A DNA stretch of 64,000 nt from assembly GCA_963735755.1 (NCBI GenBank), contig CAVTME010000005.1, forward strand, positions 263,036 through 327,035, in the 5' to 3' direction. This document shows, one piece after another, positions 3,323-43,046 of this stretch. The DNA is from an uncultured Bacteroidota bacterium. Lineage in GTDB: Bacteria > Bacteroidota > Bacteroidia > Bacteroidales > GCA-2748055. Within the stretch, counting starts at the first letter, position 1; each line of letters begins with the position of its first letter. Both the position numbers and the translations under genes were made by a program. The notes below the pieces were generated by a model that worked only from the letters and a program-made list of their open reading frames with translations, made no database searches and was not told the DNA's origin.

Positions 3323-5095
3323 ATGTCCAGGACCTTTGTAGAGAAGATATTTGATGCGCCACAGGGAGCCATTGTGTTCAGAAAACCCGACCTGATCCTA
3401 TCCCATGATAATACATCCAGCATCCTGAAGACCTTCGGGCAGATGGGAGGCGAGAAGGTATTTGATCCCGGTCGCCTGGTGGTTGTACTGGACCACAATG
3501 CTCCACCCACCACTTCAGCCCTGGCCAACAATTACAAGGCCATTCGTGATTTTGTGATGGATCAGGGAATTCTAAAATTCCATGATGCAGGGAGTGGGAT
3601 TTGTCACCAGATTATGGCACAGCATGTAAAACCCGGAATGGTGGTGGTGGGAAGTGACAGCCATACCTGCACTGCCGGTGCATTTAATGCCATGGCGGCA
3701 GGGATTGACCGGACCGAGACGGCCGGATTGTGGCTTAGGGGCGAAACCTGGTTCCGGGTTCCCGACTCGCTGAAGATTACCCTGACCGGTAAACTGAAGC
3801 AGGGTGTGTATGCCAAGGATCTGAGTCTTTGGATTATTGGGATACTTGGATCGGCTGGAGCCAATTACCTGTCCATCGAATACCATGGAGACGGCGTTGA
3901 ATCACTGACCATCGCTGACCGTATGACCCTGGCCAACCTGGCTTCGGAGATGGGCGCTAAGAATGCAGTGTTTCCGCCCGACAGGGTGTTGGAAGCGTTC
4001 CTGGGAGAGAAATTTGAAGGTATCTGGGCTGATGAAGGCGCCGCTTATCTGCGTGAGATCACCATAGACCTTGGGGAGATTTACCCCCTTGTGGCGGCTC
4101 CCCATCATGTGGATAACATCATGGCACTGGCAGAGGTCTCCGGGTTGGAGATCCATCAGGGTGTGATCGGAACCTGCACCAATGGCCGAATAGAAGATCT
4201 GCGGGAAGCGGCTGCTGTACTTCAGGGCCAAAAGATCAAGGATGGCATTCAACTGCTGGTTATTCCCGCTTCCAGGGAGATTTACCTGCAGGCCATTGAG
4301 GAAGGCATTATTACTACTTTCCTGGAATCTGGGGCCAATATCCTGAGCTCCTCATGCGGACCGTGCCTGGGAACCGGCCAGGGAATTCCCGCAGACGACA
4401 CCCGGGTGATCTCCTCGGCAAACCGGAATTTCCTGGGCAGGATGGGGAACAAGAATGCTGAAATTTATCTGGCATCTCCCGCAGCTGTTGCATTGAGTGC
4501 TTTGCACGGCAAGATCCGGGATCCAAGAAAAATCACAGGAGCCGAGCGCTTTCCCTACAAGAAGGCACAGGTAAGCAGCATGACCATAGAAGATAACGAA
4601 TTCAGAAGGGAAAAGGGTGTTTGGGACTATGGCGACTGCGATAACCTGAATACCGACCAGATGTTCGCTGGCAACCTTACCTACAAAGTTTCCAGCTCTG
4701 AACCGGCGGGAATCATTCCCCACCTTTTCGAAGGATTTGATCAACGCTTCTCAACGGAAGTCAAGCGTGGAGACATCATCCTGGGCGGGGAGAATTTTGG
4801 CTGCGGCAGCTCACGCGAACACCCTTCAGTGGGACTTGCCCATGTGGGTGTAAGTGCTGTGATTGTCAAATCCGTCAACAGGATCTTCTATCGCTCCGCC
4901 ATCAATCAGGGCCTTCCCCTCATTGTCCATCCCGATGCGGTCGACGCTTACCATACAGGCGATCAGGTGAAGGTGGATTTTAAAGCTGGGATCATTTCCA
5001 TAGGCAAAAACAAGTACCCCTTTGAAGCCCTTCCTGACAAGCTTATGCAGATCCTGGAAAGCAAAGGTCTGGTCAATTGGATCAGGGATCAATAA
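3323..5095 (+). CDS. Aconitase-superfamily dehydratase, fused large + small subunit (paralog of 371..2176)
   Basis: 590 aa, intact. Motifs: GSDSHTCTAGAF, IGTCTNGRIEDLREAA, SSSCGPCLGTGQG, NRNFLGRMG, then a LeuD-like domain with GENFGCGSSREHP. Confidence 0.85.
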   Translation: MSRTFVEKIFDAPQGAIVFRKPDLILSHDNTSSILKTFGQMGGEKVFDPGRLVVVLDHNAPPTTSALANNYKAIRDFVMDQGILKFHDAGSGICHQIMAQHVKPGMVVVGSDSHTCTAGAFNAMAAGIDRTETAGLWLRGETWFRVPDSLKITLTGKLKQGVYAKDLSLWIIGILGSAGANYLSIEYHGDGVESLTIADRMTLANLASEMGAKNAVFPPDRVLEAFLGEKFEGIWADEGAAYLREITIDLGEIYPLVAAPHHVDNIMALAEVSGLEIHQGVIGTCTNGRIEDLREAAAVLQGQKIKDGIQLLVIPASREIYLQAIEEGIITTFLESGANILSSSCGPCLGTGQGIPADDTRVISSANRNFLGRMGNKNAEIYLASPAAVALSALHGKIRDPRKITGAERFPYKKAQVSSMTIEDNEFRREKGVWDYGDCDNLNTDQMFAGNLTYKVSSSEPAGIIPHLFEGFDQRFSTEVKRGDIILGGENFGCGSSREHPSVGLAHVGVSAVIVKSVNRIFYRSAINQGLPLIVHPDAVDAYHTGDQVKVDFKAGIISIGKNKYPFEALPDKLMQILESKGLVNWIRDQ

Positions 5096-5110: not shown

Positions 5111-5118
5111 TATCTTTG
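5111..5118 (+). promoter_or_regulatory. Bacteroidota -7 promoter box (TATCTTTG) upstream of tRNA-Arg
   Basis: Matches TAnnTTTG. It lies 29 nt upstream of the tRNA 5' end at 5147. Confidence 0.35.
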
Positions 5119-5146
5119 CAGCGCAAAACCGGATTTTTGCTTTCTC

Positions 5147-5220
5147 GGTTCCGTAGCTCAGTTGGACAGAGCAACAGCCTTCTAAGCTGTGGGTCGCGCG
5201 TTCGAATCGCGTCAATCACG
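5147..5220 (+). tRNA. tRNA-Arg(TCT), canonical except for a non-pairing 3' acceptor strand
   Basis: GGTTCCG-TA-GCTC-AGTTGGACA-GAGC-A-ACAGC-CTTCTAA-GCTGT-GGGTC-GCGCG-TTCGAAT-CGCGT-CAATCAC-G. The D, anticodon (UCU) and T arms are canonical. The 3' acceptor CAATCAC pairs with only 2 of the 7 bases of GGTTCCG. Confidence 0.55.
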
Positions 5221-5275
5221 AAACTATACAGCTTCTCGTGACCGCATTCGATTAAGCTTCGCGATGAGATTCTTC

Positions 5276-5353
5276 GGTTCCGTAGACAATCAGTTGGACG
5301 AGCTCAACAGCATTCTAAGCTGTGGGTCGCGCGTTCGAATCGCGCCGGAATCA
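5276..5353 (+). tRNA. Second tRNA-Arg(TCT)-like copy: good acceptor, anticodon and T arms, aberrant D region
   Basis: GGTTCCG...ACAGC-ATTCTAA-GCTGT-GGGTC-GCGCG-TTCGAAT-CGCGC-CGGAATC-A. The acceptor stem pairs 7/7 (one G.U). The D region GACAATCAGTTGGACGAGCTC cannot form a D stem. Its 3' end runs into the first terminator hairpin. Confidence 0.4.
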
Positions 5354-5387
5354 CAAAAACACCGCCTTCGGGCGGTTTTTTTGTGAT
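5350..5387 (+). terminator. Intrinsic terminator hairpin (array copy 1)
   Basis: ATCACAAAAACACCGCC-TTCG-GGCGGTTTTTTTGTGAT. GC core with a UUCG loop and a T-run. The long A/T extension makes it potentially bidirectional. Confidence 0.7.
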
Positions 5388-5552
5388 CACGAGGGACGAA
5401 GTCCCGAGTAATCACTCAGGTAGCGATGAGAACCTTCGAACCGAGACAACGTAGTTGTCGAGCTCATAAGCATACGGAGTATGCGAATAATTGCGCCGGA
5501 ACCGAATCCACCAAAGGTGGATGAGCTCATGACTGAGCGAAGTGAAGGAATA

Positions 5553-5590
5553 ATCACAAAAACACCGCCTTCGGGCGGTTTTTTTGTGAT
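5553..5590 (+). terminator. Intrinsic terminator hairpin (array copy 2)
   Basis: Same sequence as 5350-5387, 203 nt downstream. Confidence 0.7.
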
Positions 5591-5755
5591 CACGAGGGAC
5601 GAAGTCCCGAGTAATCACTTAGGTAGCGATGAGAACCTTCGAACCGAGACAACGTAGTTGTCGAGCTCATGAGCATACGGAGTGTGCGAATAATTGCGCC
5701 GGAACCGAATCCACCAAAGGTGGATGAGCTCATGACTGAGCGAAGTGAAGGAATA

Positions 5756-5793
5756 ATCACAAAAACACCGCCTTCGGGCGGTGTTTTTGTGAT
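5756..5793 (+). terminator. Intrinsic terminator hairpin (array copy 3)
   Basis: CACCGCC-TTCG-GGCGGTG followed by TTTTTG. It lies about 30 nt beyond the stop of the convergent tail-fibre-like gene, so it may terminate both strands. Confidence 0.65.
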
Positions 5794-5821
5794 AACGAGG
5801 GACGAAGTCCCGAGAAAGCTA

Positions 5822-8113
5822 CTACTTCATACCATCTATTTGTCTTTCAAGCTCAGAAACCTTCTGAATTAGTTCCTCAATGATGGCCTTCTGCTCCCTG
5901 CTCTCTTCGGTGAGTTCCTGGATGGCTTTTATGGCCACTACGGTCGCCGGGTGGCCATCCAGTTGCAGGAGTGGATCCTCATCTCCATCCAGACTTCCGC
6001 CCCCTTTCTGGACATATTGAGGAAAAACCTCCCTGTATTCTTGAGCGATGTAATTGTAGTAGGTCTTGTCCTTAACAGATGGGTTCATTTGCATCCAGTC
6101 CTCGGTATAATTGTAGCGGACTGGTCGCAGCCTGGCAATCAGGTCACAGGCATTTTCGATATCCGCCACGTTGGTTTTGATTCTTGCATCGGAGTTGGCC
6201 AGCCATTCCCCGGGGGTTGTTTTTGATACTTCACCAGCCACTTCAAGCGCGTTATCGGTGGCCATCATTCCTACTCCCAACTGGCGGTTAATTTGTACCC
6301 GGTTATTATAGAACTCACCATATATCAGTGCATTATCTGATGTGTTGTTGTCAATATCAATATATAATATCCCATCCCTGCTTTCATCCATACCAACCTT
6401 GTTACCAATAAAGACATTATCCTTTCCATTACAATTGAAACCGGAAAGGGTGCCGATAAAGACATTTGATTCTCCTGTATTATTATTAAAACCAGACCCG
6501 TCACCTATGAACACATTATTGCTTCCTGATGCATGATCCCACCCAGCATTCTGGCCAACAAAAACGTTTGTATTGCCGCTTACATTGCTTCGCCCAGCAT
6601 TCAGACCTACAAAAACATTTCCAAACGCATCTACATTCTGCTCACCTGAATAGGCTCCAATAAAGGTGTTGGCTTCTCCATTTACATTTCTACTACCGGA
6701 TCCATGTCCTAAAAATGTATTAACGGATCCATGTTCGTTGTTTTCCCCGGTTGAATTACCAACAAACACATTGGCTGATCCTCCCGAATTCCTGAGCCCG
6801 CTTAAATTTCCAATAAAAATATTTGCCCCCGAAGTATCTGATTCATATCCCGCCATATGTCCCAAAAATATATTGGTCCCTCCCCATACATTATTTGCCC
6901 CGGCGCCTGATCCAATAAATACATTCCATGAATCTAGCGCATGCGAACCTGCTTCATTGTCCAATGTAAACATTGCTATGACCGGATAAATTATTCTTGC
7001 CTGCGAAAATTCCCATGAATAAATTGTTGAATCCATCCACATTAGATTGTCCTGCATTGGGACCAATAAATGAATTAGATCCCCCACTGGTATTCTGTTG
7101 TCCGCTTCTCTCTCCGATGAAAATATTACCATTACCTGTGCTAGTGTTTGCTCCGCTCTCGTAACCAATAAAACTGTTATGTGAGCCTGAGGTGATAGCC
7201 TCTCCCGCCCTGTGACCAATAAAATAATTCTCTCTTGTGAGATTAAAGAGACTGGTTCCCTGATCCAGCTCTCCTCCAAACGTTGATTTCGTTTTAATTG
7301 ACAGGGCACCGGAATAGGAATCTACAGGTTGATCTGAAACCATGAGGAAGTTTGCACTGTCGGGTTTAAGCTCAAAATAGTTGTCAGTAGTGCCTTTGGT
7401 CTTGCGCGAATAACCACCCACAGCAAATCCGCCTTTCTTGCCTTTGGTGTTCTCTTCATCAAAATAGAGCCGGATGCTGTCTGGCGATACATGCATGTAC
7501 TCCTGGGTGATCCCCTTGTGCTTCCGGGAATAGCCTCCCACAGCAAATCCGCCTTTTTTGCCTTTGGCTTCCTCATCCAGCACATAAATCCTGGTTCCCT
7601 CTGGGTAAACTGCAAAGACAGTCTGGCCTTCTGCATTACGCACTTCAAACAGTGCTGAATCCACAGGGTGCCCGGCCTCCTCCTGCACCGTGAATTTCCT
7701 TGTGGGACTGGAGATGTTTCCAGAATAAAGTGAATAGGGAACTGAAATCATTTGCGATGTCCCAAGGTGGTCGTAGGAACTGCCTCCTGAAGGATCCACT
7801 TCTACCTTCAGGAAATGTAGATTCTCTCCCCACAAAATGTCTTCAAATGCTCCGCTGCTTACGGAGCCTTCACCGATGACCAGGTTGGCAAGTCCCACCG
7901 CATTGGTGGTCACTGTATGGGTCTCCACATACACTTGGGATCCATTGGCTGATCCCTCAAGGATGCTCATTTGAAAAGAAACATCCTGGTTGGAGATCAC
8001 AACATGTTGTGCATTACGCACCACTGCCTGATAGTTAAACTTCTGGGGACTTGCGCACTTGTGCAAAACACAATGCTGAGAATCATTGAGATAAGAAATG
8101 CTCTTTTTTTCAT
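5822..8113 (-). pseudogene. Tail-fibre-domain protein with C-terminal peptidase S74 intramolecular-chaperone domain; two frameshifts
   Basis: Signal peptide MKKRAFLISMILSIVFCTSAQ from ATG 8113, then a frame change at the C4 run 8045-8048 into ORF 6954..8066 (PQKFNYQAVVRN...). The N-x-F-I-G-x-x-AG repeats continue across a second frame change at about 6959 into ORF 5822..7309. The C-terminus SDARIKTNV...LRPVRYNY...QLDGHPATVVAIKAIQEL plus a coiled coil is the S74 autoproteolytic chaperone domain. Confidence 0.8.
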
Positions 8114-8261: not shown

Positions 8262-10142
8262 TCAAGGAGTGGCTTTGTCTTTTCTGTCCAGGATCTTGTC
8301 CATCTGGTCCATGAGTTCGTTCATGGCTGCAATGGTGGAGGTGAACACTTCGGTCCCGGTCATATCCACACCGGCGATTTTAAGCAGATCAATGGGATCA
8401 TCAGATCCTCCGGCACTGATGAACTCGAGGTATCTTTCCCTGGCACCCTTTTCACCGTCCAGCAATCGTTTGGCCAGCGAGATGGAAGCTGTAAATGAAG
8501 TGCTGTACTGGTACACATAGTAGTTGTAGTAGAAATGTGGGATAAAGCCCCATTCCATATGAATGTAATCATCCACGTGGCATATTCCCTGGTCGTGACC
8601 ATAATACTTCCTGACAATCTCAAGATAGAGCTCTGAAAGGTATTTGCCTGTTAAGGGAATACCCTTTTCAACGGCTTCGTGAATCTTCAACTCATATTCG
8701 GCAAACTGAGTCTGGCGGAACAGGGTTCCTTTAAATCCATTGAGCCTGTCCATCAGGAGAGAAAGCTTGATGTCATCGTCAGTGATTTCATCGATGATGT
8801 AGTCAAACAGAAGCACTTCGTTGAAAGTGGATGCAACCTCTGCCACAAAGGTTGTGTACCTGGAAGTGGGGTAGGGTTGGGTCTTGTTGGAAAAATAGCT
8901 CTGCATGGTATGCCCCAATTCATGAGCCGTGGTACTCATGTCAGAATAGAGATCATTGTAGTTCAGTAGGATATAAGGATGCCCATCATAAAAAGCGCCG
9001 TTTGAATAGGCTCCTGAACTTTTCCCCTTGGAGGGATAGACATCAATCCACCGTTCATTAAATGCTTTCTCAACGGTTGCAATATATTCTTCGCCCAGGG
9101 GAGCCAGCGCTTTGAGCAGGATTTTCTGCGCTTCTTCGAAATCGTAAGTCAGATTCACATCTTTTACCACAGGGGCATAAAGATCCAGGTACTTCAATGT
9201 ATCCAGGCCCATCATTCGCTTCTTAATACCCAGGTAGCGGTGGAAAGGTGCCCAGGTTATCGTTTACTCCCTTTACCAGCGAATGATAAACATCTGTTGG
9301 AATATTGTTGGGGTACAATGCCCTCTCCAAGTGAAGAATTATAATTGTGCGCCTTGGACATGTACACATCCCTTTTAATACCCCCGTAAAGTAGTTCTCC
9401 CAGGGTGGCCTGGAAATTCTCAAGGTTTCCAAAAAAAGCTTCAAAAACCAGTGCCCTGTCCTCCCTGTTGGCTACTGCCCTGTATTTCCCAAATCCCGGG
9501 ACTGTCCAGAATTACACTTTCTCCGGTGCTGAGGGTTACTTCCGGATTTGGCATCTCTGCATTGGTGAAGGTACTGTATACCGACGAAGGGACTCCTGAA
9601 ACCATCCCTGACAGGGCGATAATTCTTCCTTCAGCTTCATCGGGGGTGTGTTGCTGCAGGCGAAACAGGTCGCTAAGTCCCTTTTCATAGGGTTTTAATA
9701 ATGGTTCTTCCTCTATGAATTCTTCAATGACTTCCCATTCAACAGACAGAATTTCCGGATCAATAAAAGAGGCTTTGGCTCCAAAACTGGAGAAGAGCTG
9801 CTGGACCTCCTGTCTCATCCCCAGGTAATGCATGTCGCGGGTGTCCAGGTCCGAGTGCATTCCGGCATAGATACTCAGCTTGATAGCCTCTTTGGAGATT
9901 TTTGTAGTGTACTCCATTGCTTTTAGCAACTGACCTGATGATTTGGTGAGGGTCCCTTTAAAGGATTCAACTTTGTCCAGCTCTTTGATCAATTGTTCCT
10001 TGGATTCTTGCCAGGCTTCATCGCTGGAATAGATATCAGTGAGATCCCACTTGTATTTATCCTCGATCTGATCCCTTTCAACCTGGGCCGGAAGGACAAA
10101 GAATAGGGTCAACATAGAAATGCAAAAGACAAGTTGTTTCAT
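8262..10142 (-). pseudogene. pepF: Oligoendopeptidase F (M3B), signal-peptide-bearing, frameshifted into 3 pieces
   Basis: Fragments are 9441..10142 (MKQLVFCISMLTLFFVLPAQ...), 9223..9444 and 8262..9215. The last carries the zinc motif TAHELGHTMQ. One junction reads ACCTTTCCACCGC where ACCTTTCACCGC would keep the frame. Confidence 0.8.
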
Positions 10143-10191: not shown

Positions 10192-10563
10192 TCAACTTTT
10201 TTCTAATAGTGCCATGGCAATGTATTCCCACTCTTCTTCCAGGGACAAATCTGGCATATTCTTCCCGGCGCTCCGGTACCAGTAGCCCGCATTTCCCCGA
10301 TCGCCCTCTTTTCTGTGCAGGTAGGCATGGACCCAGGATCCGTCCGGATTGTTTTCTCCCTGGGCAAGGTTGTGCGCGCTGTCCCAGTCTCCTGCGGCGT
10401 CCAGCAGAAGTGCCTGGAGAAGGGGAGGGATGTCCTCCGGAACTGATCCGGTGTCTTTCATATTCAGAAAATCTTCAAATGCTATCATGCGCGAAAGTAT
10501 TTCATGAAGGTGAAATTCCTCCTTTAAAGGTAAAAAAAAAGAAGGACCTTTTCCACCCTTCAA
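10192..10563 (-). CDS. Conserved hypothetical small protein
   Basis: Intact ORF of 123 aa; the real start may be the internal MIAFEDF. Motif WVHAYLHRKEGDRGNAGYWYRSAG. I cannot name the family. Confidence 0.45.
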   Translation of the reverse strand: MKGGKGPSFFLPLKEEFHLHEILSRMIAFEDFLNMKDTGSVPEDIPPLLQALLLDAAGDWDSAHNLAQGENNPDGSWVHAYLHRKEGDRGNAGYWYRSAGKNMPDLSLEEEWEYIAMALLEKS

Positions 10564-10663
10564 ATCATAGTTTCAGGTCCACATTTCCGGGTATAAAGGA
10601 TAGTTTTGATATTCATCAGATAGTTGGTCTCCTTTTTTTATATTTACACAAAATAATACACCC

Positions 10664-11836
10664 ATGATCGATTCTTTCCAATTCTCATCATTGCCGGAAA
10701 TCCGTTTCGGGAGGGGAAAGCGAAATGATTTGGCTGAAGCAGTTAAAATGCATGGAAAAAATGTGCTGCTGCTCACCGGATCGTCATCCATTCACAATTC
10801 CGGTCATGGCGATGAGATTATGTCCGGACTGAAAGAAGCTGGCCTCAATCTGTATCATGAAGTGATAGCCCATGAACCTTCTCCTTCCCTTGTGGATGAA
10901 ATTGCTGACAGGAACAGGGCTCATGAGATTGATGTGGTTGTGGCTGTGGGTGGCGGAAGCGTCATGGACGCAGGAAAGGCAATTTCGGCTATGATTCCGG
11001 TTGAAGGCAGCATCAGGGAGTATCTGGAAGGAATTGGGAACAGGGAACATCCAGGTCATAAAATTCCTTTTATCGCCATGCCCACAACATCAGGAACGGG
11101 AAGTGAGATGACAAAAAATGCTGTGATTTCAGAAGTGGGGGATCAGGGTTTTAAAAAGTCACTTCGCCACAATAATTTTATTCCCGAGATGGCCATTATT
11201 GATCCTGAAATGATGCTCTCATGCCCGACCCGCCTTACAGCCACTGCAGGGATGGATGCCTTTACACAACTCCTTGAATCATATGTGTCAAAGCAGGCCA
11301 ATCCAATGACTGATGCCTTGGCTTTGCAGGGGCTGAAGCAGATTAAAAAATACCTTTTAAGGGCCTTCCTTGAAGGTGAGAATAACATTGAGGCCAGATC
11401 AGGAATGGCGCTGGCAGCCATGTTTTCAGGTGATTACACTTGCTCATGCCGGTTTGGGACTCGTCCATGGATTTGCATCGCCCCTGGGTGGCTATTTCCA
11501 CATCCCCACGGGGTAGTTTGTGGTTCCCTGATGGCACCGGTCTTTGCCCATACCATTGATAACCTGATTGATCAGCCTGGATAATCCGGCCCTCCAAAAA
11601 CTGGTCATTGTAAGCAAGGTTTTCGCAGATTTCAAATATAAGAAAGAGCAGAATATTTGCAGGCATTTAAGGAGAAGCTGTTTCACATCACCAGCCTTCT
11701 GGAAGTCCCGGGATTTGCTGAATTTGGTTTCACAGAAGCATCTATACCGAAAATTATTGAAAACACTTCGCATAAATCCCATCCTGTACTACTGACTCCC
11801 AAACAGATGGAAGATTCTTTAAGAAGCAGGATTTAG
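10664..11836 (+). pseudogene. Iron-containing alcohol dehydrogenase, frameshifted near the C-terminus
   Basis: ORF 10664..11584 has GGGSVMDAGKAIS and the Fe-ADH core. The authentic C-terminus (GFTEASIPKIIENTSHKSHPVLLTPKQMEDSLRSRI*) is in another frame and ends at TAG 11834-11836. Confidence 0.75.
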
Positions 11837-12312: not shown

Positions 12313-12909
12313 TTACATCCCTTTAGGTACCTCAATCCCTGTATTTGACAAAAATAACTTAATGGCAATGGCCAAGCAAGATGATGCCGAAGAATTTCCT
12401 CAGAATATGTAATCCATTGGGCCCGAGTATATCTTTCAAACAAGGTTGTGAGTCGGAGGACAAGATACACAATAATCATATTCAATGAAAGTGCGATAAG
12501 AATATTTATTGAATGATACTCAGCCCGTAGTGAAAGCAAGGTGGTGATGGAACCTGCTCCGGCAATCAGGGGAAAGGCAATGGGTACGATGGGCCCCACC
12601 ACCTCCATCCGAATCATGTTTAAAGAGTTGGATCCCAAGAACCATTTCAATTCCCATCAGGAACAGTATGACAGAACCGGCAATGGCAAATGAAGAGATA
12701 TCCACACCGAAAACGCCCAGCAAAGGTTCGCCGATAAAGAGAAACAGCAACATGATCGCGTAGGCCACAAGGGTGGTCTTTCCTGGATAAAGGGCTCCGG
12801 TTTTGGTTTTGACATCCAGGATGATCGGAATGGATCCAAGAATATCAATGATGGCAAACAGCACCATGAATGCTGCCAGGATTTCCATAATGTTGAGATG
12901 CATGATCAT
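12313..12909 (-). pseudogene. MarC family (UPF0056) membrane protein, at least 2 frameshifts
   Basis: Fragments are 12520..12909 (MEILAAFMVLFAIIDILGSIPIILD) and 12309..12650. The true C-terminus KDILGPNGLHILRKFFGIILLAIAIKLFLSNTGIEVPKGM* is in a third frame and ends at TAA 12313-12315. Confidence 0.7.
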
Positions 12910-16145: not shown

Positions 16146-17087
16146 TTAGCGTGCCTTCTGGTAAATCTCAATATTACGTGCGATCTTTTCCACAAGGAGT
16201 TCCCGGGATTCTTTTGAGGCCCAGGCCATATGCGGAGTAATCAGGATTTTCTCCTTGTCATATAATTTCAACATGGGATTGTTAGCGTTGATGGGCTCAT
16301 GCTCCATGACATCTAATGCCAGCCGCTCCAATGAGATTGTCGTTCAGTGCCCTGGCCAGGTCCTTTTCATTAATAATACCGCCCCTTCCAAGGTTCAGCA
16401 GGATGGCACATGGCCTCATCAATTTGATCTTTTCATAGGTAATCAGATCCCTGGTCTGGTTATTCAGTGGTGCATGAATGGATACCACATCCGAGCTTTT
16501 CAGCAGATCGTCCAGATCAAACCGTTTATAACTGATGTGGTTGTTCCTTCCGGAGGTGGAATAAAATACCACATCCATACCGAATGATTCAGCAATACGT
16601 GCCACCTGCCTGCCAATGGTCCCAAGTCCGATAATTCCCATCCGCTTCCCTTTTAACTCCCAGAAAGGTTCATTGTGGTGTGTAAACGAATACTTCTTGA
16701 GTAGGCCCCGCTTTTTACATAACTGTCATAGTAATAGGGCTTGTTGACCAGGTACAGCAGCATGGTAAAGGTGAGCTGGGCTACGGAATCGGTGGAATAG
16801 CCCGCCACATTTTTCACTTCAATGCCATTGTTTCCGGCATAGTTCAGATCCACATTGTTGATTCCTGTGGCAGCCACACATATCAGTTTAAGATCAGGCA
16901 GTTGTTTCATGATATCAGCTGTCATTTTCACCTTGTTTACAATCACGATCTCTTTCCCTGTGCATCTTTCAACCACCTGGTCGGGATTGGTGGTCTCATG
17001 GATTTCGAGATTGCCCCGTTTGGAGAGCAATTTTATGTTATCCACTTTACCGATGGTTTCCGAATCGAGAAATACAATATGATCCAT
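16146..17087 (-). pseudogene. D-isomer-specific 2-hydroxyacid dehydrogenase (glycerate dehydrogenase-like), 2 frameshifts
   Basis: Fragments are 16653..17087, 16297..16641 (GIIGLGTIGRQVARIAESFGM, the NAD fold) and 16146..16331 (ITPHMAWAS). Confidence 0.8.
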
Positions 17088-42119: not shown

Positions 42120-42399
42120 ATGAAAATTTTAATGTTTGCTTCTGTATTTGGCTTTCTGGCAGGATTGACTTTCGCCCAGAATAAAGTTGATATTGACAAA
42201 GAAAAGGCGGCTGTTGTTGCAGTAAATGAGGAAGAACGAGATGCTTATTTCGACCGTGACCTTGCCAGGCTTGAAGCCATCTGGATTCCAGAGCCTACTT
42301 CCAAATATGAAGCAGAAAAGAATTGTTCATCTGATAAAGGAAGATGGAGTATGGAAGATCGATCTGATTGTACAACTATCAGCTCCGGCTGAGAAATGA
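42120..42399 (+). pseudogene. SnoaL/DUF4440-like protein remnant (internal loss + frameshift)
   Basis: The N-terminus has a signal and AVVAVNEEERDAYFDRDLARLEAIW. The plausible C-terminus KQKRIVHLIKEDGVWKIDLIV... is in another frame and ends at TGA 42397-42399. The total is too short for the fold. Confidence 0.4.
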
Positions 42400-42433
42400 T
42401 TCATTGAAATATTTAATTCATGAGAACGAAATA

Positions 42434-42853
42434 ATGAAAAGAATACACACATTTTTGGGAGCCATATTATTGGCTGTATTACTTACGGCTGTTTTCACGG
42501 CATGTGATGACGATGATAATGGTGATAATAATCCAGCTACACTCAATGGATCATGGTCTACTCCGTCAGGGGATGTTAGCTTTTTTGTCAGCCAGGAATC
42601 CAAAATTGATACACTGAGGGTCACTCTTACCTTTACGGGTGATTGTTCAGGAAGTATAATCACAACCATGTACGGGGTAAATATTTCTGATAACATGTTT
42701 ACCGGAAACCTGGGAAGTTCCTGGGAAGGAAGTACGGGATCAATCAAAGGGACATTCTCTCAGGATAAGAAGACCTGCAACGGAACATATAATTATGATA
42801 ACTCCACATGCAATCCAATCAGTGAATCATGGACTGCAACACCTTCCGATTGA
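42434..42853 (+). CDS. Hypothetical lipoprotein
   Basis: MKRIHTFLGAILLAVLLTAVFTAC (lipobox), followed by an Asp-rich linker. Confidence 0.5.
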   Translation: MKRIHTFLGAILLAVLLTAVFTACDDDDNGDNNPATLNGSWSTPSGDVSFFVSQESKIDTLRVTLTFTGDCSGSIITTMYGVNISDNMFTGNLGSSWEGSTGSIKGTFSQDKKTCNGTYNYDNSTCNPISESWTATPSD

Positions 42854-42952
42854 TTTGCAGGGGGATCTATTTTATCAACTTCAGGTCTGGGGATTATGTA
42901 ACCACTCGAAAGATAATCAAGCTGTGATTTTATCCCCCCGGTTACTCCATTG

Positions 42953-43046
42953 CATCGCTATGTCGTGAGCTTGTCAGCTACGCTGCCTCGGTTATTCGCA
43001 TACTACGTATGCTCATGAGCTCGTCAGCTACGCTGCCTCGGTTCAC
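42953..43046 (-). repeat. Dispersed copy of the tRNA-derived hairpin-module repeat seen at 5.4-5.8 kb
   Basis: The reverse complement reads GAACCGAGGCAGCGTAGCTGACGAGCTCATGAGCATACGTAGTATGCGAATAACCGAGGCAGCGTAGCTGACAAGCTCACGACATAGCGATG. The array reads GAACCGAGACAACGTAGTTGTCGAGCTCATGAGCATACGGAGTGTGCGAATAA. It contains a 27-nt internal direct repeat (42967-42993 and 43017-43043). Confidence 0.8.

Follow-up and report, generated by a model that had tools for sequence, protein, structure and literature searches.

Repetitive extragenic palindromes (REP) and their doublets (REPIN), which are associated with RAYT transposases, are short non-coding intergenic repeats in which the hairpin structure is conserved over the stem sequence and recognition is strand-specific. 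They form clusters and tandem groups, lie at gene 3' ends in or beside terminators, and persist for long in a lineage, with copies of the same genome resembling each other. Miniature elements derived from IS200/IS605 have neither terminal inverted repeats nor a clear target duplication, are structured on the top strand, insert 3' of a short target, and carry subterminal hairpins. In a 64-kb window of the genome of an uncultured Bacteroidota bacterium of the order Bacteroidales (contig CAVTME010000005.1; the window is the whole stretch of 64,000 nt that was analysed), we identified a module of about 50 nt that shares these properties and is repeated in a tandem array behind a damaged tRNA-Arg(UCU) gene. 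Coordinates are positions within the window, and the labels L001-L158 denote comparison loci from relatives and metagenome contigs.

The module is nearest in its working to REP/REPIN elements or IS200/IS605 miniatures, yet it fails their defining features. In place of the GT[AG]G foot of REP and REPIN, it has the feet CCGA-G.. and CAYGA-S.., in which CGA and YGA form G.A pairs. It consists of two different hairpins in direct order with an invariant 10-nt linker rather than a palindrome or inverted doublet, it strongly prefers tRNA T-loops and acceptor ends, its copy density is low, and the loci scanned showed no RAYT gene. RAYT subclass 2.6, which is specific to Bacteroidetes, has been described as having 'atypical secondary structures', but the repeats listed for it do not contain GAGCTCA (PMC6006769). 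The module is also much smaller than the IS200/IS605 miniatures, its hairpins lie 4-7 nt from its ends, and its copies occur in opposite orientations within 300 nt at the same tRNA locus. We lean towards the reading in which the module represents a miniature mobile repeat of a new kind that depends on its structure (comparable to REP elements or to miniature inverted-repeat transposable elements, MITEs), and in which the tRNA-Arg gene was duplicated, damaged, and colonised by it.

Structure and covariation of the module

The module reads CCGAG-H1-CGAGCTCAYGAS-H2-SGARTAA (as RNA, CCGAG-H1-CGAGCUCAYGAS-H2-SGARUAA), where H1 and H2 are the two hairpins. It lacks both terminal inverted repeats and coding capacity. 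A covariance model was built from a 29-copy seed (A1) with the consensus GAACCGAG-H1-CGAGCUCAYGAS-H2-SGARUAAYC. Compensatory changes were observed in all 12 hairpin pairs of the seed, with 91% of the cells paired; none of 500 shuffles reached the observed percentage of paired cells or the covariation score (0.76 versus 0.22), and sliding the pairing partners abolished the signal. The covariation persisted in a larger metagenome set, and 88-91% of the cells were paired over both sets. Among the non-standard cells, G.A or A.G (96) and G.T (23) dominated while A.C (6) and C.T (3) were rare, which indicates that the structure is selected on one strand only. The loops were mostly GNA or AAA triloops closed by C-G, which is the very stable type of DNA mini-hairpin.

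Together with the stem in which it lands, or with an upstream strand N..GCGA preceding TGAGAAC, the module forms a three-helix junction, again on one strand only. The outer helix of this junction is supplied in different ways. In T-loop copies, the T-stem of the tRNA closes the module; in copies within terminators, CCCCC/GGGGG does so; and in a third class, to which the window belongs, the 5' partner is found farther upstream, right before the conserved TGAGAAC. The helix of this third class covaries with the tRNA type, as GCGA/TCGC (Arg), GGGA/TCCC (Lys), GGAGA/TCTCC (Pro), and CGGGCGGA/TCCGCCCG (Cys), and the Cys helix runs past the tRNA-derived sequence by matched changes on both sides. Extra pairings given by RNAalifold on full elements (UGAG/CUCA and UUCG/CGAG) were set aside, as they involve invariant bases only, beyond the reach of the covariation test, and UUCG/CGAG also conflicts with the covarying closing pair of H1. 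Half modules CACGARGGACGAAGTCCYGAGTAATCAC were additionally found in short tandem arrays of their own in L001 (12012-12160) and L114 (384-490), with periods of 59 and 36 nt and a closing pair that covaries (G-C/A-T).

A fold of this kind may also belong to a functional structured RNA. In that case, the module and its closing helix would form a three-way junction in the T-arm, cotranscribed with the tRNA or reached by terminator read-through, and serving in protein binding or catalysis, and the spread of the module would be secondary; we consider this a serious rival, possible but not probable. The strong strand-specific covariation in H1, H2, and the outer helix and the near-invariant junction sequences speak for it, as do the tandem G.A pairs that flank every hairpin, like those of k-turn and hammerhead cores. 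The order outer helix (open), H1, CUCAUGA, H2, GAA, outer helix is that of a type III hammerhead, with G.A pairs flanking H2 as they flank stem II. The hammerhead was nevertheless rejected as an identity: the core is CUCAUGA..GAAU rather than CUGANGA..GAAA, G5 is C, three extra nucleotides follow GAA, a linker of 7-19 nt replaces the cleavage-site nucleotide, and there was no Rfam match to it up to E = 10. A box C/D or k-turn RNA was rejected as well, the likeness going no further than the strings GAUGA and CUGA, and a matching C-stem being absent. Also unfavourable to a structured RNA are the predominance of triloops, with GNRA and UNCG tetraloops rare within modules, and the lack of a match to any Rfam family, ribozyme families included. 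Rfam, run on the window in gathering and E-value modes and on 15 module-bearing loci in E-value mode, matched only tRNA, in line with the suspicion of the first-pass annotation that no described family has this architecture; weak matches to rsmX and STnc370 covered just the terminator. A full-text search of the literature found no description of the module motif.

Insertion sites and distribution

Three pairs of empty and filled sites show precise insertion of the module. First, L084 and L114 share the leader gaaaagctgaccacgaatgttt, which in L084 runs straight into GGTTCCG and in L114 is separated from it by two inverted 46-nt modules. Second, in L118, the T-loop GGTTCGAA|TCCAG is intact in units 1-2 and holds a 55-nt module exactly at the marked position in units 3-4. 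Third, L010 and unit 1 of L013 have the acceptor end CGGAATCAC empty, whereas it is filled in L008, unit 2 of L013, and the window. The junctions were ambiguous by only 2-4 nt (AA or AACC), and the ends CCGAG.. and ..GARTAA form no inverted repeats, both of which set the module apart from MITEs. Insertion took place directly after NGAA, whether in the T-loop (TTCGAA|TC), at the acceptor (CGGAA|TC), at the tRNA 5' end on the other strand (CGGAA|CC), or in terminator loops.

The covariance model gave five strong matches in the window (E about 1e-15 to 1e-19), four in the array and one at 42990-43044 (-). In relatives, 28 matches were found in 963 kb of Bacteroidales loci, 25 of them at most 400 nt from the orthologous tRNA-Arg gene, and a further 108 were found in 79 metagenome contigs recovered by a flank-free DNA pattern. 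Further copies and covariation were what the first-pass annotation had looked to for support of a family, and its judgement that the array was not random decay is upheld: the module family is conserved, has copies at other loci, and covaries in its hairpins.

The metagenome modules adjoin genes for tRNA-Arg, Pro, Lys, Met, Cys, Ser, Val, and Tyr (ARAGORN). The layout of these loci is constant: a whole or partial spare tRNA copy holds the module within its T-loop (..GGTTCGAA|module|TCC..). After the module come the 3' strands of the T-stem and of the acceptor and the trailer of the adjacent intact tRNA. In a census of 108 unique copies, 74 were hosted by tRNA-derived sequence, namely the T-loop (56), the acceptor 3' end (CGGAA|TCAC; 10), and the tRNA 5' end in inverted orientation (8), where the terminal CC of the module restores G1G2 of the tRNA. 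Six lay directly behind another module, about 18 in the CCCCC...GGGGG terminator loop after a small secreted-protein gene, and about 10 elsewhere. The left flank was NGAA in 91 copies; the right flank YC of the metagenome set carries no weight, because the search pattern forced it. Copies of one genome were more alike than orthologues: module 1 of the window array and the module at 43 kb share a CATAC/GTATG hairpin 2, and the copies of L001 share a GCAGC/GCTGC stem.

Two known arrangements were considered for these sites and rejected. The module is not an integron attC site, as its ends are direct repeats (G/T)AAC|C around two separate hairpins and the inverse cores RYYYAAC/GTTRRRY are absent. 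Nor is it a T-loop intron, as the carrier copies are truncated or damaged in the acceptor and an intact tRNA always lies alongside.

The contexts bear on the structured RNA in both directions. Most copies lie in sense to the tRNA, some of them in tRNA operons or between a promoter and tRNA-Cys, which would fit a transcribed RNA. However, the modules do not keep to one direction of transcription: those in tRNA leaders and behind protein genes are inverted, which argues against a simple family of sense-RNA genes; the inverted copies would yield the complementary RNA, which is unable to form the G.A pairs. The precise insertion polymorphisms demand a mobility mechanism in any case.

The positions in question, the T-loop and 3' end of tRNA genes, are classic targets of integrases. 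The tRNA 3'-end repeats may accordingly be scars of attachment (att) sites left by tRNA-integrating elements or homing endonucleases, with the modules as arm sequences beside the crossover. We consider this improbable as a full account. In its favour, each unit lies between direct repeats of the tRNA 3' end that begin precisely within the T-loop, and the first tRNA is regenerated. Regenerated tRNA, 3'-part direct repeats, a T-loop junction, and tandem accretion are shared with tRNA-integrating elements and with free-standing GIY-YIG genes such as phage T4 SegB. Equivalent units at L118 each carry an 81-amino-acid GIY-YIG nuclease gene, and in the window a tail-fibre-like gene lies immediately downstream. 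Conversely, the present units are gene-free and only 135-203 nt long, and modules insert alone as pieces of about 50 nt, also away from tRNAs in terminator loops that hold no tRNA fragment. The L118 units occur with and without the module, and nuclease unit and module are thus separable. No GIY-YIG gene was found in the window, and no integrase among the 25 of 67 matched Pfam families listed for it. The covarying hairpins are likewise unexpected for arm sites bound by a protein as double strands. Scars of att sites or of homing are therefore retained as a partial contributor to the duplication of tRNA fragments.

The L118 array itself (780-2150) starts with tRNA-Val(TAC), followed by four units of about 400 nt, each made up of a tRNA 3' end, a terminator, the GIY-YIG open reading frame (ORF), and a partial tRNA with a different anticodon arm. 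Three copies of the ORF are intact, and two of the four units hold a module. Judged from its sequence, the array looks like a homing-endonuclease cassette accreting at a tRNA gene. The nuclease was rejected as a general partner of the module, as it is present in L118 only.

The second window site (42937..43044, -) represents the terminator class. Two tandem modules closed by CCCC/GGGG lie inverted behind a lipoprotein gene (42368-42853, +); the one at 42990-43044 scored 76 bits, and the one at 42937-42989 is degenerate and was recognized by eye. The same form was found in L063 (13336-13445) and at about 18 metagenome loci. Small secreted-protein genes (SnoaL-like, DUF4440-like, and DUF4286-like) are arrayed in one direction in the window (42120-43044, with a truncated DUF4440-like ORF at 42120-42392), in L063 (12270-13974), and in L086 and L117. 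Each gene is followed by an inverted module in a CCCCC/GGGGG terminator with a T-run and then by a conserved segment of about 70 nt, a layout that resembles gene cassettes. Members of the terminator-loop class are near-identical (L083, L108, L109, L112, L117, L119, L127, L131, L138, L145, L153, L154, and L158); nearly all their differences fall in the three-base loop of hairpin 1 (GTG, TCG, TGA, ACG, GTA, ATG, GTC, GCG, GCA, and ACA), with hairpin 2 and the linkers constant. Neutral decay should spread changes evenly and does not explain this concentration in the loop.

The tRNA-Arg(UCU) locus and its array

The locus is served by the Bacteroidota-type -7 promoter box TAnnTTTG (TATCTTTG, 5111..5118, +), which had been noticed in the first-pass annotation and which also precedes the tRNA in relatives. 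Copy 1 of tRNA-Arg(UCU) (5147..5220, +; Rfam tRNA 49.6 bits) has intact D, anticodon, and T arms and an intact 5' acceptor strand, with its 3' acceptor strand replaced by CAATCAC, such that two of seven acceptor pairs form. In the tRNA-like copy 2 (5276..5353, +; 42.4 bits), the acceptor stem, with the 3' strand CGGAATC, the anticodon arm, and the T arm are correct, and the D arm is replaced by the 19-nt ACAATCAGTTGGACGAGCTCA, which leaves no D stem. A normal tRNA-Arg(ACG) in the window scored 61.7 bits for reference. These defects agree with the first-pass description, as does its conclusion that neither copy is a canonical tRNA: neither combines a 7-bp acceptor stem, a D arm, and a call by a tRNA finder, and ARAGORN called neither copy and no other tRNA-Arg(UCU) in the 64 kb. 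On sequence grounds, neither copy at this conserved locus appears functional.

Copy 2 repeats 12 nt of the 5' end of copy 1 exactly and 40 nt from the anticodon to the T arm at 98%. As the orthologous flanks are divided between the copies, the 5' flank lying at copy 1 and the 3' flank at copy 2, the original gene was duplicated internally and both halves were damaged. The replaced D region ACAATCAGTTGGACGAGCTCA is closely similar to hairpin 1 of module 1 plus GAGCTCA, which suggests either recombination between module and tRNA or an old tRNA ancestry of the module. The module loosely resembles a shrunken tRNA (GAGCTCA versus the D-stem TAGCTCA, and CGAATAATC versus the T-loop CGAATC); of the features of a tRNA-derived retroposon like a short interspersed nuclear element, a 3' tail and target duplications were absent.

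Remnants of inverted modules adjoin copy 1 on both sides. The leader carries TTTGCTTTCTC|GG (5132..5146, -; weak covariance-model match at 5132-5151), the terminal CC of which provides G1G2 of the tRNA; full inverted modules occupy this position in L001, L003, L006, L007, L008, L012, L096, and L114. The mosaic spacer between the copies (5221..5275, +) holds an inverted-module piece AGCTTCTCGTGAC, with a weak minus-strand match at 5250-5280, and the 5' motif of the element, GCGATGAGA, at 5261-5269. A perfect 10-nt inverted repeat, GCTTTCTCGG (5139-5148) and CCGAGAAAGC (5810-5819), encloses the whole tRNA array, and both of its arms are ends of partial modules in opposite orientation.

As assembled, the tandem array (5349..5814, +) has a period of 203 nt and spans 2.3 units (98% matches and a score of 897 in Tandem Repeats Finder). 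Three substitutions, the number reported before, separate the two full units (5417 C/T, 5468 A/G, and 5481 A/G), and the last of them turns an A-U pair into G.U. Each unit starts with the tRNA 3' end TCAC and the tRNA terminator, a 17-bp stem with a UUCG loop and a T-run (5350..5387, +; again at 5553-5590 and 5756-5793). A half module follows, CACGA-G[GGAC GAA GTCC]C-GAGTAA plus TCAC (5388..5415, +; again at 5591-5618), which is also present in L001, L003, L009, L012, L067, L084, and L114; its third copy (5794-5819) terminates in CCGAGAAAGC, a truncated module start. The next segment (5423..5440, +; again at 5626-5643) joins GCGA, which is the outer-helix 5' strand, to TGAGAAC and to CTTCGAA, a remnant of the T-loop.

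Module 1, CCGAG-ACAAC GTA GTTGT-CGAGCTCATRAG-CATAC GGA GTRTG-CGAATAA (5441..5490, +; again at 5644-5693), is inserted at the T-loop GAA|T, and its covariance-model matches (5438-5492 and 5641-5695) reached 72-73 bits with E about 1e-18. It is followed by the tRNA 3' fragment TTGCGCCGGAA (5491..5501, +; again at 5694-5704), which covers the last part of the T-loop, the 3' strand of the T-stem, and most of that of the acceptor. Module 2, CCGAA-TCCACC AAA GGTGGA-TGAGCTCATGAC-TGAGCGAAGTGAAG-GAATAA (5502..5553, +; again at 5705-5756), is inserted at the acceptor CGGAA|TCAC; its matches (5499-5555 and 5702-5758) scored 60 bits with E = 8e-15, its hairpin 2 is a variant with internal tandem G.A pairs, and orthologous copies were found in L008, L013, L016, L132, and L084. 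The five hairpins per unit and the module AACCGA-hairpin-GAGCTCATGA twice per unit, both reported previously, were thus present. Folding of the unit was more stable than that of shuffles, with z = -4.7 (RNA) and -6.5 (DNA).

Without its two modules, the unit is a T-loop remnant, the tRNA-Arg 3' end, and its terminator. The earlier proposal of a tRNA-derived, MITE-like structured family therefore stands for a structured, MITE-like family, whereas the tRNA origin is limited to the scaffold (the T-loop remnant, T(T)GCGCCGGAA, TCAC, and the terminator copied from the tRNA itself). The modules are independent of it, being present also in copies of seven other tRNA species and in the terminator loops of protein genes. 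Each element had been described as having its own terminator. Because the terminator duplicates that of the tRNA, it is no proof of separate RNA genes, and as no second TAnnTTTG box lies between 5111 and 6862, the units have no promoter of their own. That a terminator closes each unit fits a structured RNA, but the position of the promoterless units behind a strong terminator does not. The 2.3 copies may have arisen by slippage or unequal crossing-over between direct repeats. Tandem arrays of the same build were formed independently at other tRNAs (L013, L093/L120, L134, L144, L147, and L152), for which slippage of this kind would also account.

The aconitase-family gene upstream was used to recover 72 syntenic loci of Bacteroidales and Bacteroidota (best protein identity 85%). 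Most relatives examined have a single normal tRNA-Arg(UCU) directly behind this gene. In many of them, the tRNA terminator is followed by GCGATGAGAACnGTTCGAA-CCGAG-hairpin-CGAGCTCATGAG-hairpin-CGAATAA-TCGCGCCGGAA(TCAC), as in the window unit, and therefore the unit is not a private decay product of the window genome. This stretch terminates in a copy of the 3' end of the species' own tRNA; in L013 and L016, the T-stem differs in the tRNA, and the copy differs identically. The structured RNA gains from this locus, where the module is kept with compensatory changes in distant species. That the array is no more than a local duplication in decay, or an artefact of assembly, is very improbable, although the two defective tRNA copies and the many split genes nearby (by decay or sequencing error) could point to it: the same module and arrangement occur at the locus in more than 12 other genomes and at seven other tRNA species, and the covariance-model matches (E about 1e-18) contradict it for the modules.

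Upstream of the array, two aconitase-family paralogues (341-2176 and 3323-5095) flank asnA, and the position of tRNA-Arg(UCU) directly after the second paralogue is conserved across Bacteroidales. Directly downstream lies a tail-fibre-like gene (5822-8066, -) with a Peptidase_S74 chaperone domain and matches to PHROG tail fibre and tail spike families, which is split into overlapping ORFs (5822-7309 and 6954-8066). A prophage that formerly occupied the tRNA-Arg gene may have left it behind. Between 8262 and 17087, further genes are split, namely an M3 peptidase (8262-9215 and 9441-10142), an iron-containing alcohol dehydrogenase (10209-10667 and 10664-11584), and a 2-hydroxyacid dehydrogenase (16300-16641 and 16656-17087), and MarC is present as a fragment (12523-12909). 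Either the genes are real pseudogenes or the assembly contains frameshift errors.

Proposed mobility and significance of the module family

A mobile repeat of this kind would move non-autonomously through a single-stranded intermediate, with the folded top strand recognized by an enzyme acting in trans. By analogy, REP/RAYT and IS200/IS605, with their hairpin-guided HUH/Y1 enzymes, would offer the nearest working model for such an enzyme. A cell would not survive insertion into an essential tRNA, so that copies would be kept only in redundant tRNA pieces; alternatively, copies may persist where the CC of the module re-creates G1G2 of the tRNA.

Several candidate sources of mobility were searched for and rejected. 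The two hairpin halves were never more than about 24 nt apart, which speaks against a full-length parent element. A phage origin was rejected because two scans of viral contigs yielded nothing beyond chance matches within coding sequence. Clustering of ORFs near the metagenome modules gave syntenic genes and SnoaL-like, DUF4440, and DUF4286-like secreted proteins, and no enzyme.

A number of observations weigh against a mobile repeat. No transposase or integrase was found for the 58 ORFs of the window within the Pfam families listed, and no ORF with a RAYT-like HUH/Y motif in about 1.4 Mb (161 loci and the window) by a crude regular-expression scan. Within the same limits, no tnpA or tnpB gene or full-length parent was found, and the hairpin halves were never separated by a gene. 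Modules 1 and 2 are retained at the tRNA-Arg locus where the aconitase is only 74-85% identical, with almost invariant junctions and compensatory stem changes; such long retention looks like selection in place, as of a functional RNA or DNA site, and a purely selfish repeat would need continual refreshing. Opposite orientations at a single locus conflict with the replication-strand rule of IS200/IS605, and 72 of the 108 copies are in sense with the tRNA transcription unit. Some copies lie within tRNA operons (L123) or behind the tRNA-Cys promoter (L144), and are thus transcribed. The density is low, with five strong matches in 64 kb (six with the degenerate one identified by eye), far below that of typical REP families, and copies in relatives are almost never found away from tRNA.

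A combined explanation, which we regard as doubtful, is that the module is a self-propagating three-way-junction nucleic acid that homes into tRNA T-loops (GAA|UC), either by ribozyme-like reverse insertion of RNA or as single-stranded DNA with a hairpin-guided enzyme, and is kept for a benefit to the host. If so, the benefit could lie, for example, in processing, insulating, or protecting tRNA genes.

The target of the module, the tRNA T-loop, is unusual and well defined, and the finding is more general than the first-pass annotation held. The covariance model now detects a widespread motif that is absent from Rfam, and the module family offers a concrete explanation for tandem arrays of tRNA fragments. 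In Bacteroidota genomes and metagenome-assembled genomes, the module leads tRNA finders either to list odd tRNA pseudogenes or to overlook them. If the present genome has no tRNA-Arg(UCU) elsewhere, how its AGA codons are decoded becomes a question. The module is a tiny structured element aimed at the most conserved loop in biology, and the enzyme or RNA activity behind it could reveal a mechanism of mobility and could yield a sequence- and structure-specific DNA or RNA tool.

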